Assembly: GCA_031763465.1 (NCBI GenBank)
Contig: JARFOE010000001.1
Coordinates: forward strand, 16,033,591 to 16,083,667
Source of the DNA: Squatina squatina
Taxonomy: Eukaryota
Reading direction: 5' to 3'
DNA: 50,077 nt
In this document: piece after piece, positions 10,409 to 40,676 of the stretch
How positions within the stretch are numbered: the stretch's first letter is position 1
Layout: each line of letters begins with the position of its first letter
Position numbers and translations under genes: made by a program
Notes under the pieces: generated by a model
What the model saw: the letters and a program-made list of their open reading frames with translations, nothing else
Databases searched by the model: none
Told to the model about the DNA's origin: nothing

Positions 10409-10677
10409 ATGGCAGCGCAAGCAACAAGTCCGGACACTGCAACCTCGTCTGATCCAAGAAAAGAATTTCGTCCAAATCCTTCATTAAATGAAGCTCTTGT
10501 GAAGATCATAAGTGGAAACTTGCTGGGACATGAAAAACCTAAAGCTGCACGGAAGTCACCATCCATTTCACCCAGGCTATCCCCCAACATTTCACCCAGA
10601 AATTCACCACGACTTCTGCGAAGAATGATATTGAATGAGAATCAAAAGAAGCGTCGCTTTACAGTAGCTCATACCTG
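10409..10677 (+). CDS. PDE4D: PDE4D5 isoform-specific first coding exon
   Basis: MAAQATSPDT...NPSLNEALVK...NLLGHEKPKAARKS...ISPRNSPRLLRRM...RRFTVAHT(C) matches the PDE4D5 N-terminus. Phase-2 donor TG|GTAAGA joins in frame to the exon at 31618. Confidence 0.95.
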
Positions 10678-14189: not shown

Positions 14190-16239
14190 NNNNNNNNNNN
14201 NNNNNNNNNNNNNNNNNNNNNNNNNNNNNNNNNNNNNNNNNNNNNNNNNNNNNNNNNNNNNNNNNNNNNNNNNNNNNNNNNNNNNNNNNGGTCAAAGGGA
14301 CTGCTGCAGGCCGCAGAAGTAGCTTTCAGATAAGTTTTTCTAATATATCTTAATGCGGAGACAAGTGGAGAAACAGTGCTCCTCCTGCCTCCAACTTAAG
14401 ACTGCAGCTGCTCTGCCAGCCCTCGCTCATGCCACTCTTTCCCGACTCACCCTGTCCTCCCCCCGCCCCAAATTCACGTATGGGCGTTGGCTGGCGTCAA
14501 ATCCCCGATCAGAGTGCCACATCAAGACACCCAATTGCTGCTCACAGCTCGCCACAATTATGATGAGGCCTGAGGACCAATTTAGAATGGCCCTTGGGCC
14601 TTTCCATTCTGGCACACCTGGGCTTTATGATCTGATTTCCTTTCTTTTTATCCAAAGAAATCAGCGTAGCAAATAGCTGGGGTGCCTGAGATATTCTCAG
14701 GCTCAGCAGTACTGATTACTCCTGCAAGTGGTCTCTGTGACTTAAGTTCAGAAGTGTGCCTGTACTGACCAAGATATAACCGTATAACAGCATAATGGGG
14801 AGCATAATGGTGATATGAGCGGATTATTCTGGCATTGAATTTCCGAGGGGGTTCTACCGCTTGCCCATCATAACATTAGTGGAAGAAACCCAGACAAAAT
14901 GGTGTAAATGTTTAATATCAATCTGTGAGATGTGACTGATTACTTTAAATTTGGTAACCGCTAGCTGCTTTCCCCAGGTGAGAGAGGATACACATTATGG
15001 CCAGGTAGGTGAAAATGTCACTTCAAAAGCATTATTCCTATGCAAATTCACTTTGGTTGCAAAGGAAGTTGGTAGATTACCAAACGCATTTGATTTGGCA
15101 CCACGGTTCAAATTCAGCTGTGTCCCATGCTGCTTCCTCCAGGCGGCGGTGCATATGCCCACCACCAGCCCAAATAACACTAAAAGTAGAAATTTCCCCC
15201 TCCATTCTGATCAGCATTTAACTTCCAGTTCAAATTTGAATAGTAGGGTACATTGCTGCCAGAATGCTGTCATGCTATATGGCAGTCATCTGGAAGAACT
15301 AACGGTATGAATATGGTCAAAGAAAGTGACGGGAAGGAGGATTGCATCTCATGCATGTGGCACTAGTGTGGCAATGCTCATATTGTCATAAAATACCCAA
15401 TTAAATTTGAGCTCCCGTGGCTAAAAGAGGAAAAATGGGCCCCTCTGTGGGTTACACTCAAGCATAAAACACTTTATGACATGCAGTAATCAGTTCATTG
15501 CTCTACTCCCATTCAAAGATTTGGATTCCACAATCATATCATTATAATAATTCACTTTAGTAATTTGTTTGGAAAAGCAGCTTTAATTCTAAATAAAGCA
15601 ACACTCCACATGTTAATGAAAGAATGATAATGCATAATGCATTTACAGTGTAATCGTTAAAGGTAATTAAAACGCCTATTAAATTCAAATTGCTATTTGT
15701 TTTGAAACAATTAAAATCCGAAATGTTATATGACTCATCAGAGGCTGACAGCGTACATCAGGAAAATATTCTTCCCCACGCTCAATTTTGTTTGAGTACG
15801 TCTTCTACTATTGATGTAATTATAACACCCACATTGTTTCAAGTTTGGTATTTAGTTTCACAACCTCTGAGCTACTCTTTCTGGACAATGGTTTCTTCAA
15901 AGAATAAACAGCTGTATTCAGTATAAAGTGTTGCAAAAAGAACAGTTGCAATGGAAAGACAAACCTGTAGGGCGATTCAGTGCTTGTAGAGTGCATTCTC
16001 TCTCAAAGGGAGCTTTGGTTGCAGTCTTGTGCCCTATTCCAACCGATACTTCCTTCAAATCAGAGTCCCCAATGGAAACTGCTAGATCATTGAACGAGAA
16101 AAAGAATATGGACCAGAAAATACTCCTGTGGTTCAGAAATCAGCATCAAATTTAAGTCTGAATTAGCACTAACACTGTCCAAGTCAGCTTTGTTTTTGTT
16201 GCTGTTTCTATTTAACTCACTTTGCACTTAATTGCGGTT

Positions 16240-23655: not shown

Positions 23656-25964
23656 TATGCTGGTATGGTATACTTGCAGCTGACTTTCTACTAGTGCCAG
23701 TTAAGATTAAAATCAGATCCATCTAATCTGAAGAAAACATCTTGCCACAGCTTAAAAAAATCGGTTTTATTTTGAACTTAATTTTCATTAGGATAATTGT
23801 AAAATTCAAATTCAACTTTTTAATTTGTATTAATTTAACACATCACCAAACCTAATCCACAGAGGAGAGTGGTTCTGTCTAGACACAACTACACAGATGG
23901 GTAGAGACATTGTAGTCCTGGAAGTCCCGACAGGCCCAAATGTGGACAAAGTAGAGTAGACTGAGCTATTTGTTTGACATTACCCTGACTGAGAATCCTT
24001 CAAAATAATACAAAGCAAGACCACAAGAGACTGGAGAAAGAATGAAGATCATTGATTAGATCGCATGGCTGAAATCAGCTCAATGGGATATGTTTCAAGC
24101 CCACCCAAAAACTCTATGCCGTAATTGAATANNNNNNNNNNNNNNNNNNNNNNNNNNNNNNNNNNNNNNNNNNNNNNNNNNNNNNNNNNNNNNNNNNNNN
24201 NNNNNNNNNNNNNNNNNNNNNNNNNNNNNNNCTCACCATTCATTGCAACTCACAGATCTGTCCAAGAAGGCAATGTGTTGAAAATAAAGGCTGATCAAAT
24301 AATAAAGAAATGTACTTAATATACATTGGGCATCTGGTATTCCTATATGTAAAAGGAATTACAAATACGGGAAGTGAGAGCTCAAAGCTTGCTTTCTGTC
24401 ATATTGCTTATAATTGTACTTAATCAACACAGCAGGATATTGTATTAATGATCAGCACCTTTCATTTGTATGCAAATGTCCAATATGATTGTGTTTAATA
24501 GGACTGAGAATAAATCTGCTCATAAAACACAGGAGAGAAAAACTATTTCACAGGGATGTGAAATGGTGACTTTTTTTGTGTAGTTGTAATGAAGTTTCTG
24601 TTCTAAGCTGTAAACAAAGCTACAGTGAGGGATCAATGCTTGCTACTGGTGATTATCCCAAGTCCTCTGAGAGTATGTGAATGAAACCTCAGTTGGTTTG
24701 TCATTCTCGTTAATGAGGGATGATGACGCAGTCTGTCAAACCTGAGTAGACGTCACAGAGTGTAGCAGTGTTTTATAACACAGACCGTGCAGCTATGGAG
24801 AGAAGAAACCAGTGTTTGCTCGAACAAATAGTTGTGTCCTAGAAAACTGGGATCTTATTAAACAACAATAGCATTGTTTCTGCACAAGTTCATTCCCATG
24901 TGGAATGAAAAATATTTCTAGGCTTCTCAGAAACTCAGTTGAATTTAATACAAGAGATTAATGCACTAAGCTGGGTCACGTCTTTTCAGTGTATTTACAA
25001 AGTAGTATTTCAAAGTTTTTTCTTAAACTTAAAGTAATTTTTGTGTTTAGATTAGCTTGAGAAAGTTATTGCTGTGTCAGTCTGATGCATGTATTTGTCG
25101 ATGCAGATTTCCAGCAATAATGAGAACAAAGTTTTATAGATTTAAAATATCAAAGAAAATAAAGGCTTAGGGCAGCCAATTCGACTTCCCTGAGTTACAA
25201 GTGCTAACGGACAAATTGTTGAGTGCAAAGTTCTGGTTTCAGCACTCTCCCTTTAAGGCCTGCAATTCAAGACATTGAAAACAAATATTCTGACAGCTTT
25301 AAAAAACGTGCTAATTTCAGTGCTAAAGGGCGCTGATTATCTTAGTTTATTTCAGCAGGCCAATTGTGGGACGGATCTAAGGAGCTGCTATCAAGTGTCA
25401 GACCACCTCAGCCCTTAAAGGGGTTCGTTCTGGAGACACAAGCAATGCTTAGGTCAGTCAAATCATAGATCGTTGGTGGNNNNNNNNNNNNNNNNNNNNN
25501 NNNNNNNNNNNNNNNNNNNNNNNNNNNNNNNNNNNNNNNNNNNNNNNNNNNNNNNNNNNNNNNNNNNNNNNNNNNNNNNATGCAGTTCTGGGTTTATCAT
25601 GGTCTATCCTTTTAATATCTTATATACTTCTCTAAAGTCCTTTGTGAGACATTTTTTTTTAAAAGATCAAACTTTTCAAATCTCTAGCTACTGCACTGGC
25701 AGAAGTAGTCTACTGGCTTTATTTTTTAATTGTGCGAATCTGTCAATAAAAAGGTCCAATGCTACATCTATGGAGGCTTTTTTCCCAAGTGTTAAAGCAA
25801 TATATTTTTTAAAGGTACATTTAATGATTTCAGGTGTAGCTAATCTATCGAGGTATTACCAGTAAGAAGTATTTTAAAATGGCTACACTTTAAAAAAAAA
25901 CTACTTAGATGCATGACACACATTGTGCAACTGATGTAATATTCAATGGAACAATCATTATTAA

Positions 25965-26051
25965 TAATGTTTTCTTTCATTTTAGGTAAGTACAGCAAAC
26001 TCTTATCTTTTTGACATGAACTCCAGGGACATGGATTATACCAAGGTACAA
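25965..26051 (+). promoter_or_regulatory. Candidate recursive splice site (AG 25984-25985 | GTAAGT 25986-25991) with 60-nt RS-exon 25986-26045
   Basis: Polypyrimidine tract tttttctttcattttag directly followed by a perfect donor GTAAGT. A second donor AAG|GTACAA starts at 26046. No repeat recognised at the site. Confidence 0.72.
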
Positions 26052-26489
26052 TTGTGATATTTGTATTAGTATTGGCCTTGCTCTTATCTCTAGTTAATAA
26101 AAGACCTTTTGATTAGGTCATCCTTTGTAACTCTTTGCAATCCATGTTGAATAGAGTCGAGGCTTCAAACATTGGGATAGACACCAAGTATTTTATTATT
26201 TAGTCACCAAAAGTAAAGTGATCATGATGTGATTTTGAAAGTAAATATTTTGTAATCTTACTGCCAAAAAGGAATAGAAATGTTGAGATTATTGTTCTGT
26301 TGATTTCATGGTATTGGAGAGGTAAAGTTTGGTATTCACATAAGGGACTTCTCAGGAGAGCCACTGAATGTGACAGTCAGATACTGTGGAGCATGTTGCC
26401 ACTTGCACCTGTCAATTACCAGTATTCAATTTTAAAGAAGTTGATGAAATTGCCCACCTGTTTATAGAACAAATATTGTTTTGGCAAAA

Positions 26490-26620: not shown

Positions 26621-27374
26621 TTCCGTAATATTTTGGTTTAGCTCAACCCTCACTGCATCTCACCTCCGTGGCAGTGAAAACTCACCTTGTTTACTTTGTG
26701 AGCCTAATCATGAATATGATTTTGAACTGTTGAGATTATTGTTCTGTCGATTTCACTACCGAGGCATCCTTACTGTGATACCCGAAGTTTGTAGTTCACT
26801 GTCTTTTTATTCCCACAAAAGCTAATTGGCCTGATTGTAGGTTTTAGTGATATTTCGTACTTTAGAAAAATGCAAAGAATTCTGTTCACATTCCTTTCAA
26901 ATGCTAAATGTACCTAGTAACTTTCATTGGGGAAAATGTTGCTCCACTGTACTGCCATTGAGCTGCTGGATTTTTCTGTCAGTATTTGAATTGCAGTTGT
27001 TTAGTATGTATTCTGTCTTCATTTATGGAAATATTCATACAGTCTCAATTAACAGAATTTTTCCAAACATCCCAGAAATGTTGAGTTCAGATTTTGAATG
27101 GCAAATAATTCAGATTGAATAGATTGTAATCTTTCCTTTCCAAATGGTACCTTTTTGAACAGAGACTGAAGTGCATTTTCGCAATCCGGCCAAGTAAGCA
27201 AAGATTCAAAGACCGCTCTCCAGCATTTAAAAATTCTTCACATTTTGTTTAGAGCTAGCCACTGGATGAAAAAGATTAAACACCAGTGGATCAATCGTGG
27301 GCTAGAATTGCTCCATGCATTGCATTTATACCCCAGGCAAAGCTGTGGACTCATTATGACTCTTCCTTTTGGAA

Positions 27375-28316: not shown

Positions 28317-28670
28317 ACTGACGTCAGTCAGCAGTTGTGTTGCAGCTGGAAATTAAACTTGGATAGAATTCTTAAGAAGCTATCAGCTTGGCTTGTCCTA
28401 TGAAAGAAGTCAGCTTCAAAAAAAATTACAAGTTCATATTTCCTGATACTGTTGTTTCCGTTTCTGCAGAAAGCAGTGATATCTTAGAGGCATTTTGTAA
28501 TCAGGAATAGATTATGAAAAGGGACAGGCTTTCCTGTGGTAATAAGATAACTGCCTAAGAGCATTTAACCCAGATCTTTTGTGTAGTGCAAGTGTTGGTG
28601 TACAGAAAATCCACCTGAATTCCACTTCCAATGGTCGACAATCCGGTTTGGCCACGTCATAATAAAAGGA
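28317..28670 (+). promoter_or_regulatory. Putative PDE4D8 promoter with CRE
   Basis: Full CRE TGACGTCA at 28319-28326 inside the palindrome ACTGACGTCAGT. CCAAT near 28628, GCCACGTCA at 28651-28659 followed by an AT-rich TAATAAAA, all in the same contig upstream of ATG 28771. Confidence 0.5.
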
Positions 28671-28770: not shown

Positions 28771-28859
28771 ATGGCTTTCTACAGTGATTCTGCAGGAGCC
28801 TCAGGCCCTCGTATTTCTCCAAGAGGCAAGAAACAAGTCCGCATTTTGAAGTCTTACAG
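28771..28859 (+). CDS. PDE4D: PDE4D8 isoform-specific first coding exon (below the ORF-track length cutoff)
   Basis: Encodes MAFYSDSAGASGPRISPRGKKQVRILKSY(S), 30 aa like human PDE4D8 (MAFVWDPLGATVPGPSTRAKSRLRFSKSYS). Phase-2 donor AG|GTAGCT is in frame with 31618. Confidence 0.88.
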
Positions 28860-31579: not shown

Positions 31580-31810
<231 letters not shown>

Positions 31811-33062: not shown

Positions 33063-34834
33063 TAGTGAGGAAAGCAAGGCAAAGTAAATGCAAAACTTAA
33101 GGTGGGTAACAATGAATTTAAGAGGACAAACAGGCAGATTGCATAGACTGTATAATATCAAAGGATATTATTAATTATTCTTTGGATCTTTGAGTTTTTT
33201 AAAAGGACACCGATGGTGACAGCATCACTCTTGAAATACTTGAGCACCAAGAACAAAGTCATATTACAGTGAGAGAAATTTTCATTCATTTATCCTCTTG
33301 GTACCCAGTGAGATGAGCATAACCTTTGTCTTCTCAAGACTTTCTTTTGATAACTTTGTCCCTGTTGATAGGATTAATCGCCATCAGAGACCCAGTTTGG
33401 TTTCACGGAGATCAGAACCAGTGCTTACATTGGCGGTAGGAAAGTAAGTGAATGTAGTAGTTGTTCCTTTCCATAAATACTAATAACTAAACCNNNNNNN
33501 NNNNNNNNNNNNNNNNNNNNNNNNNNNNNNNNNNNNNNNNNNNNNNNNNNNNNNNNNNNNNNNNNNNNNNNNNNNNNNNNNNNNNNNNNNNNNCAGCACC
33601 TAAAGCGATTGCTTTCCGAATGGAGGTGCTACTGAGCTCAAAACTTTAAGCGTTCGGCCTTTGCGGAGGTGTCAGGAAATTTCACCCCCACAGTACTCAG
33701 ATCGGTTCAAATACGTGTGTTTGGTGAACAAATGGAAGAAACATGCACATACCTCAGTGAGCACTGTACATGTCACAGCAAGTACACACCTGGGGCGATG
33801 TATCAGAGGATTGATCAATCATTGTACTTGCCACAGAGATGGAGCTTTTATTAAATGTTTCATTAATAGTAAAAGATTTAAGTAAAATTATGAATGAATT
33901 TATTGGAATATAACTCTTATATGAAAAATCATTTGATTGCAGAACAACTACAATAGAAATGATGGTGAAATTTAAAATATTTTATACTACATTAAACATT
34001 TGTTAAAAAAATAACTTGCACAGAATCATTTTGCACAGGGCATTTTTCACTATTATAGTCAGCCTTGACCGCACGTCACTTTTTCCCCTGTCTAGTAATT
34101 TGTGTCATTAAAAATTTGGTACAACCAACAGAATGCATAGTTTAGAGTGTGGAGGAAAGGAAACGTTTTTAAGGGTTCGGTTCAATAAGCCAAAGCACAG
34201 GAGTAAAAAAAAACTGCCCCGCGCTAAATGTAAGCTGGCACAAACTGGTAGAGCATCACGAAGCGGAAAGCCATCCCTCTTGTTACTAAGCAGGTCAAGA
34301 AAGTCGGGTCCTGGTATATCAGTGGGACAACTTGCATCCATATGTGGTCTCATAGCTTCGAACCCAGGGGTGACAGACTTCACTCCATTATCAACAAGTA
34401 GTGCACCAAAGCCAGAAGACGACTGTTGCGGAATTCATTATTTCCTCACCAATTTCTAGCTCTCTTGATGTTGTTAACTCAGTGACACCACACCCCCTTC
34501 CTAAGATTTGGATCTTTGGCATATAATGTGGTATATTTCCCACTATTTTAAATTTCTATCTTTCAAGCCAAAAATAACATATGCTGGAAGAATTAGGGAT
34601 ATTTTTTTAAATATAAAAATAAAGTAGATGTCGACCTTCAGCACAACTTTACAGGATTGGTTATTTTCATTGGGAATCTAACCCCAGATACAGTTTGGTG
34701 ATTTGTGAAGTGAAACACTGACTACAATAATCCCAACCAGCAGTGCTTTCTAACTTCATAAAACCTCTGCGTCTATCCCTGTTCTGGAACCCATGGCAGA
34801 CCTGGGGCAAGCAAGAGTTACTTAGATTAAACAA

Positions 34835-38955: not shown

Positions 38956-40313
38956 TTGGACTTTTGGCCGGGCTCAGTTTGTCCGGGTCCTCTCCTAATT
39001 TCTGACACACTCCTGGCAAAGCAGCTCTGGGAGTTTGCAGGATGCACAGTGGATTTTTGGTCTCAAATGTTCAATGATACAGATGTCAGGAAAGAAAGCC
39101 CAACAATATAGTTATACTGTACATCTCGTGTTGTTGCAGAGCAGATTCTGCTTCACAGTAATACAAGATGTACAGTATAGCTGCAACCAAGCCAGCATTA
39201 ATTTGGTATTTTCCATCAAGTGTGCAGGTGATCTCATACCACTTCAGTTTTGCTTCATTTTCAGTATAATTGCAAACTAAAGTTTAAAAGATGTTCAGGC
39301 AGTTCACTGGCCCACCGTTACGTTTTACAAAAGAGCCAACTGTCCGATTGTGAAATAATAGCTGAATTATAACTACTAATTATTATTAAATGTAAATTTA
39401 ATTTTGATAACAGGAGTTATTTTCATATATTTATTAATTGTCTTACCTAGCACAGAATTATTGATCCACAGCTATCTTTCAAGCATCTTTTATATCTGTA
39501 ATGTGAAGATTGCCTTGCACAATTTATTTCTCCAAATTCTACACAATCTAAGAAAACATACATATATGAGTTCAGTATAAAGCAAATGTTACTTTAGCTG
39601 AAGCCTGAAATCTTTTTGGCAGGATATTTCATCGAAATCTGATATGGTTTGTTTACCTCTTATTGGAGCATTGCCAGGTCCTGATCCTCTGTGGATTCTA
39701 TGCCAGGATTTTTGTTCAGCCTGGCCCTTGCTTGTATAGTGTACTGGCGCTTCTGGTTGTGGTTCAAAGAAAGAGGCAGACTTTGTTAGTTGTGTGATGC
39801 CACATAAGAGTCCACTAACTGACTCAAGTGTTATGNNNNNNNNNNNNNNNNNNNNNNNNNAAAAATATGTGACAGTTTAGATGTCACAGCTAAAACTGAG
39901 CAAAAACAGGAAACCTTGTTTCGTCGTGTCTTATTAGAACTGAAATGTATATTCTATGAGTTACTATTGAGAGGACTTACTGGCTCGTTTATATGGCTTT
40001 ATGCATTCATCTGTGCAGTACTGGTGTGGTTAGAAAAAATCATTTGAAATCGTCATGGAGAAATTTTCATGGGCAATGGGAAACTGACTCAACTACCTGG
40101 CTCGGGATAAAGGCTTTCACTTATTTTATGGAAAATATTCTACATTCTGAATAAGTTTGTTCATTTCTGGGTTTAATAATACCAGTAGACCAAAAGGTGG
40201 ACAAAGAGAGAATTCTTCATTCATCGTGTTGTGTTTCTGACTGACAGCTCTAGAACTGTGTTTTCCTCTCCTACAGAAGAAGATCGCAAAACTATCGTGG
40301 CTGCTTGGTTTGA

Positions 40314-40676
<363 letters not shown>

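Follow-up and report, generated by a model that had tools for sequence, protein, structure and literature searches.

A probable recursive splice site in the long PDE4D intron of Squatina squatina, with first-step splicing joints in related organisms

The long intron of PDE4D in Squatina squatina contains what is probably a recursive splice site, to which the D3 first exon is joined in three related organisms and at which a rebuilt donor is then likely to remove the remaining intron, leaving no trace in the mRNA. The joints between the D3 first exon and the site, seen in relatives F, G, and H, are the first-step intermediate of recursive splicing. All positions refer to the window, which is the whole stretch of 50,077 nucleotides of S. 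squatina DNA that was analyzed.

The PDE4D locus and its first exons

By its sequence, the gene in the window is PDE4D. Three of its coding exons frame the site.

10409..10677, + strand: PDE4D5 first coding exon, phase 2, donor CTG/GTAAGA (tblastn to named PDE4D N-termini, E 1e-40, 62-75% identity)
28771..28859, + strand: first coding exon of PDE4D8-like type, phase 2 (best tblastn match a Rhincodon PDE4D isoform, E 5e-31, upstream letters included)
31618..31809, + strand: first exon shared by the long PDE4D forms, at which UCR1 starts (named PDE4D proteins match at 94-98% identity)

We presume the labels D5, D8, and D9 for the first exons found here. The D3 first exon, which has its own GT and reads MMHVNNFPFRRHSWI, is on the unplaced contig C940909, and the D9 first exon is likewise on an unplaced contig. 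Residues 1-14 of MMHVNNFPFRRHSWI are identical to human PDE4D3 as printed (PMC2173774). The assembly consists of 1.15 million contigs, and the intron measures 20,940 nt in the window. This cannot be the true intron length because 14 N-gaps interrupt it and because the D3 and D9 first exons, which belong inside it, sit unplaced; most of the intron is absent from the assembly. The equivalent human intron is 552 kb long (PMC6110456). The first-pass annotation had placed the site upstream of the PDE4D8 exon, and the tblastn match at 28771-28859 bears this out; the contig with the site adjoins the D8 contig, and the order of the two rests on scaffold order across one gap. A 42-residue first exon of other vertebrates had no match in the window.

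Several further features of the locus were observed. A full CRE palindrome at 28319-28326, about 450 nt upstream of the PDE4D8-like exon, likely marks a cAMP-responsive internal promoter. On the contig before the site, two neighboring CRE-like words at 24724-24755 look promoter-like, and no known PDE4D N-terminus was matched near them. After the first common exon, a 72-nt in-frame exon at 33372-33443 adds about 24 residues within UCR1; it is in bamboo shark and teleost entries, the bamboo-shark form being closest, and is missing from several other isoforms, so it is likely alternative. At 40302-40607, the exon starting AEEAYQKL is preceded by an open frame of about 60 codons that runs into it, and this extension resembles the intron-derived N-terminus of what we take to be the short PDE4D1-type forms.

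The fused acceptor and donor

At 25985/25986, behind a polypyrimidine tract, the sequence reads TAG/GTAAGT, so that a 3' splice site directly abuts a consensus 5' splice site. The surrounding elements are as follows.

25805..26460, + strand: intronic block, 91-93% identity in four other organisms (A, B, D, and E; DNA-type runs), substitutions only, a figure without a neutral baseline
25909..25983, + strand: AG-free zone, 75 nt, spanning candidate branch adenosines (25953-25967; putative branch point) and the pyrimidine tract
25970-25983, + strand: pyrimidine tract, 13 of 14 Y
25984..25985, + strand: 3' splice site AG, to which the D3 exon end is joined in organisms F, G, and H
25986..25991, + strand: GTAAGT, putative donor rebuilt after step 1, holding an in-frame TAA
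25986..26045, + strand: putative 60-nt RS-exon, never seen included and without coding constraint
26043..26051, + strand: weak competing donor AAG/GTACAA, junction 26045/26046, 60 nt past 25985, no listed difference in F, G, and H
26096..26101, + strand: AATAAA hexamer, unchanged as far as listed in F, G, and H, with contigs running beyond it

A strong acceptor fused to GTAAGT, with a second donor exactly 60 nt on, had been described here previously, and the sequence confirms this arrangement. The motif letters quoted at that time stand, except at the start of the tract, where four T rather than five follow the G.

How unusual the arrangement is depends on how much of it is considered. With the search pattern Y9-N-Y4-AGGTAAGT, which was tailored to the site at 25985/25986, the full motif occurs once in the window and in none of 100 shuffles, and bare YAGGTAAGT is commonplace, appearing in 54 of the 100. 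Genome-wide, at least 30 matches to the full pattern compare with at least 31 for a backwards control, and one repeat family accounts for about 20 of the 30. The full motif is rare, and it is without genome-wide enrichment. Of the five other matches that are placed on scaffolds, one begins an ordinary DUF2045 coding exon, so the motif by itself is no proof of recursion. No known recursive gene was found near the other copies in 86 of the 322 open stretches near five placed copies (same strand, with the repeat-family copy left out).

The block around the site is shared among related organisms, with a small share of 25700-26300 contained in 20 of the 23 listed runs (eight organisms). Among the 40 of 127 difference rows listed for A, B, D, and E, the AG, the GTAAGT, and the second donor are untouched. 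The second donor and the AATAAA are also without a listed difference in the RNA-type contigs of F, G, and H, where differences near contig ends go unlisted. Variable positions number 3 of 60 within the 60-nt exon and 9 of 68 outside it, in runs that were found by their exact words, and this conservation peak is not significant (Fisher p 0.14).

Splicing joints in relatives

The evidence for the first splicing step comes from sequencing runs of relatives; 8 of the 23 listed runs, from seven organisms, were aligned to the site region, none of them from S. squatina. Four runs with contigs aligned to 25800-26300 were taken as RNA-type, their RNA status being a guess and the library type not on record. 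In three of the four (X16, X17, and X19, from organisms F, G, and H and studies P5, P6, and P8, respectively), the contig enters the stretch precisely at 25985, with 26, 23, and 22 loose letters ahead of that position, and continues through the GTAAGT and the 60-nt donor to 26168, 26153, and 26164. In the fourth run, X18, coverage is limited to 26031-26168. For the loose letters, this genome has a single match, with no mismatches and no control matches, at the exon end directly before the GT on C940909. In DNA contigs of organisms A, B, and D, intron and not the D3 exon precedes the site. Because the D3 exon end falls precisely on the AG and the intron continues beyond it, the D3 donor was spliced to this AG with the downstream intron still attached. 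The D5 exon, which the first-pass annotation had named as the upstream partner, gives way here to the D3 first exon; these contigs show no joint between D5 and the site. The blank at 25800-25984 in the four RNA-type runs was not counted as a sawtooth edge; contigs show presence, not absence.

The first-step intermediate is therefore seen in three of four runs and three organisms, all of them relatives, with 23-27 letters on the exon side, which is below the 31-letter bar for a bridging record, and with a contig depth of 3-6. The D3 exon end and the acceptor have 6 letters in common, which makes template switching at the joint formally possible. These letters, the short exon side and low depth, the motif's want of excess over its genome-wide control, and the nonsignificant conservation peak speak for a chance motif in a slowly evolving intron, with the joints as template-switch or assembly artefacts or as functionless splicing noise. 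However, the identical joint recurs in three organisms and three studies with canonical GT-AG placement, the full motif was absent from every shuffle, and its position falls in the interval of known sites. We regard this as the least probable of the readings considered.

The main rival to recursive splicing is a cryptic (composite) last exon, in which the D3 exon would be spliced to 25986 and the transcript then cleaved and polyadenylated within the intron, giving a dead-end transcript with a 16-residue peptide that attenuates the long PDE4D forms. The shape of the contigs fits such an exon equally well. The AATAAA, unchanged as far as listed in F, G, and H, is followed by more signals at 27275 and 27373, the runs that show the joint are of ordinary size and of unrecorded library type, and typical RS-exons are without cleavage signals according to PMC7997972. 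However, all four contigs go at least 52 letters beyond the hexamer, and two go 173 and more than 255 letters beyond 26168. Nothing about a last exon would call for a perfect GTAAGT right at its start, and the hexamer is cheap because the region is A+T-rich. Recursive splicing, moreover, has been shown for the sites that human and mouse have in this interval (PMC6110456 and PMC8797253). On balance, a cryptic last exon appears unlikely.

The SFPQ-repressed cryptic last exons described in PMC7997972 offer a useful comparison. Like the shark site, they have an acceptor in a long intron to which an upstream exon is spliced, and they show read-through, with a poly(A) hexamer nearby; unlike it, they do not begin with a consensus donor. 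It is also conceivable, though a shade more doubtful than the last exon taken singly, that the site has a dual use. It would then be a stepping stone retained and used since the shark-mammal split that also bears, 110 nt farther on, a conserved poly(A) signal. This one element would let the transcript either continue (recursive splicing, full-length PDE4D) or terminate, making it an attenuator of the long forms ahead of the D8 promoter.

The rebuilt donor and the fate of the 60-nt segment

Recursive splicing requires that the donor rebuilt after the first step be used in the second, and donor strengths are consistent with this. Pairing energy with the U1 5' end was taken as a proxy for donor strength. 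The rebuilt donor gives a duplex of -10.5 kcal/mol both after D3 (ATG/GTAAGT) and after D5 (CTG/GTAAGT), whereas the native donors of D3 and D5 give -8.0 kcal/mol and the 60-nt donor gives -5.6 kcal/mol. By the U1 proxy, the rebuilt donor is therefore stronger than the donor that closes the RS-exon. Among the 24 GT sites within 350 nt, the 60-nt donor ranks second by the same pairing. ATGGTAAGT is listed at MaxEnt 11.01 in S4 Fig of PMC8797253. According to the competition model, it is the contest between the rebuilt donor and the RS-exon donor that decides skipping (PMC6224609 and PMC6110456); because the rebuilt donor is much the stronger here, it would be expected to win, and the segment would be skipped.

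We propose that recursive splicing proceeds in two steps. In the first, the D3 donor would be spliced to the AG at 25985, as in the joints of F, G, and H and presumably also in S. squatina. In the second, the rebuilt ATG/GTAAGT would be spliced either to the common exon, which begins at 31618, or to another recursive site. This second step leaves no junction of its own. By analogy with the vertebrate model, the weak 60-nt donor likely serves only to help define the site as an exon; if it ever won, an immediate stop (TGG TAA) would follow, and the product is a predicted NMD target. Lariats at human RS3 branch about 20 and 33 nt upstream (PMC6110456). The window has an A at -20 and at -33 from the site, which was not counted, the region being A-rich and the coordinate convention unsure.

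The first-pass annotation had noted that the upstream D5 exon ends in phase 2, so that inclusion would read TGG TAA, and had proposed a poison RS-exon acting as a promoter-dependent switch. Joining the sequences confirms the phase and the reading for D5, and D3 gives the same TGG TAA. The immediate stop is, however, no independent evidence for a selected poison exon because any GTAAGT in a phase-2 intron yields TAA. Nor did inclusion itself find support, with none of the four RNA-type contigs joining 26045 to anything, although rare forms are lost from contigs and would be masked by NMD, and with 0 downstream junction reads at the mouse Pde4d sites as listed in PMC8797253. The donors rebuilt after D3 and after D5 are equal in strength, which argues against a promoter-dependent switch.

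A regulated poison cassette, with certain promoters giving inclusion of the 60-nt exon and hence NMD, thus seems very improbable, if marginally less so than a chance motif. It can draw on a second donor that is without a listed difference in F, G, and H, on the stop that inclusion would bring, and on the 68% of human RS exons that would give a PTC (PMC6110456). The 26045 donor, unused in the four contigs, the 0 downstream junction reads at the mouse sites, the equality of the two rebuilt donors, and the fact that the stop belongs to the donor consensus all weigh against it. Two other roles for the segment were considered and rejected. As a coding microexon, it has the wrong phase, and all four listed substitutions change a residue in its only open frame. 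As a new first exon, it offers only ATGs within the 60 nt that are out of frame with 31618.

Comparison with the recursive sites of human and mouse PDE4D

For this comparison, the human donor at 58652583 is taken to be that of D8. The statement in the first-pass annotation that PDE4D is a published recursive-splicing gene proved correct (PMC6110456 and PMC8797253), but its implication of a single human site did not, as three such sites in the human D5-to-common-exon intron are found among the rows listed by Zhang et al. 2018 (PMC6110456). Of these, RS2 (hg19 chr5:58764261) and RS3 (chr5:58678237) come after the D3 donor (58882154, hg19 chr5), lariats run from RS2 to RS3, and both sites are backed by junction reads, lariats, and a sawtooth pattern, with phastCons close to 1 (PMC6110456). 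RS3 is credited also to Sibley et al. 2015 by the same paper. A further study (PMC13622621) confirms the human sites and adds one between; among the rows listed in its Table S1, RS3 is the most covered (4304 versus 527).

The shark site lies in the same gene and the same exon interval, D3 to D8, as human RS2 and RS3, and the joint to D3 excludes RS1, which is upstream of D3. Like the shark site, RS2 and RS3 have D3-type upstream junctions and a strong 3' site fused to GT (PMC6110456), and RS3, as the last used site before D8 (25.7 kb), recalls the shark site, whose contig adjoins that of D8. The human sites have sawtooth and lariat proof, whereas the shark site is known from step-1 joints alone and is matched by position, and one site is present in the gappy shark intron compared with several in human.

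In mouse Pde4d, the sites at chr13:109333510, 109550007, and 109614417 are all AGGTAAGT (Moon and Zhao 2022, PMC8797253). They resemble the shark site in this core, in a pyrimidine-rich 20 nt, and, as listed in the paper, in having upstream without downstream junctions. Their RS exons are listed at 208, 230, and 150 nt, compared with 60 nt in shark, and the listed downstream donor of the middle site has GTACAA in common with the shark 60-nt donor (PMC8797253). Over the 20 nt upstream, a hand count against the three sites as listed gives 11/20, 12/20, and 9/20 matches, and none is singled out.

Judged by position only, the shark site and human RS3 or RS2 likely go back to one ancestral element, with RS3 slightly favored. 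Taken individually, RS3 as counterpart is a tentative assignment, favored by the neighboring D8 contig and by its higher use. RS2 is possible but weaker, resting on the six-letter likeness to the listed mouse downstream donor, though that donor is at 230 nt and not 60, and a counterpart that is neither RS2 nor RS3 is given the same modest chance. Because the sizes of the gaps are uncertain, no weight was given to how far along the intron the site lies (a fraction of 0.73 here, compared with 0.70 for RS3 and 0.54 for RS2).

Relation to other recursive splicing systems

The mechanism considered here is not new, as PDE4D recursive splicing is known in human and mouse. Cryptic RS-exons of vertebrates are described for CADM1, CADM2, ANK3, NTM, OPCML, HS6ST3, and ROBO2, and a zebrafish cadm2a site is also cited (PMC5126111); they share with the shark site an RS site, a short cryptic exon, and a weaker competing donor. 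In lungfish, two candidate introns in other genes were reported from coverage only, with human PDE4D as a control (10.1101/2024.12.11.627982). No report of recursive splicing in cartilaginous fish was found in the literature searched, most subscription papers being outside it. What is added here is RNA evidence of the first step in likely cartilaginous fishes. If the orthology is true, this intron has retained a recursive site ever since jawed vertebrates had their last common ancestor, and such long retention would argue for selection on recursive sites and not for splicing noise. Selection versus noise is still debated for these sites (10.1101/2024.12.11.627982).

Other fused sites in the genome

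Further copies of the fused motif were observed elsewhere in the assembly. The DUF2045 coding exon mentioned above (L012:104-105, G000:C222:2582103) opens with GTAAGT behind a strong acceptor and is a candidate annotated RS-exon of the EJC-protected kind; the protein is presumably KIAA0930-like. Five full-motif copies outside the repeat family (L013-L017, on unplaced contigs C708951, C941104, C629823, C486635, and C401364) are candidates for other recursive sites, perhaps including the missing PDE4D ones. The repeat family itself (L007, L008, L018, and about 18 more contigs) carries the full acceptor-donor motif, and copies landing in introns in the sense orientation could give rise to recursive-like sites. 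Within the PDE4D intron, a weaker fused CAG/GTGAGA was observed on the same strand at 14977/14978.
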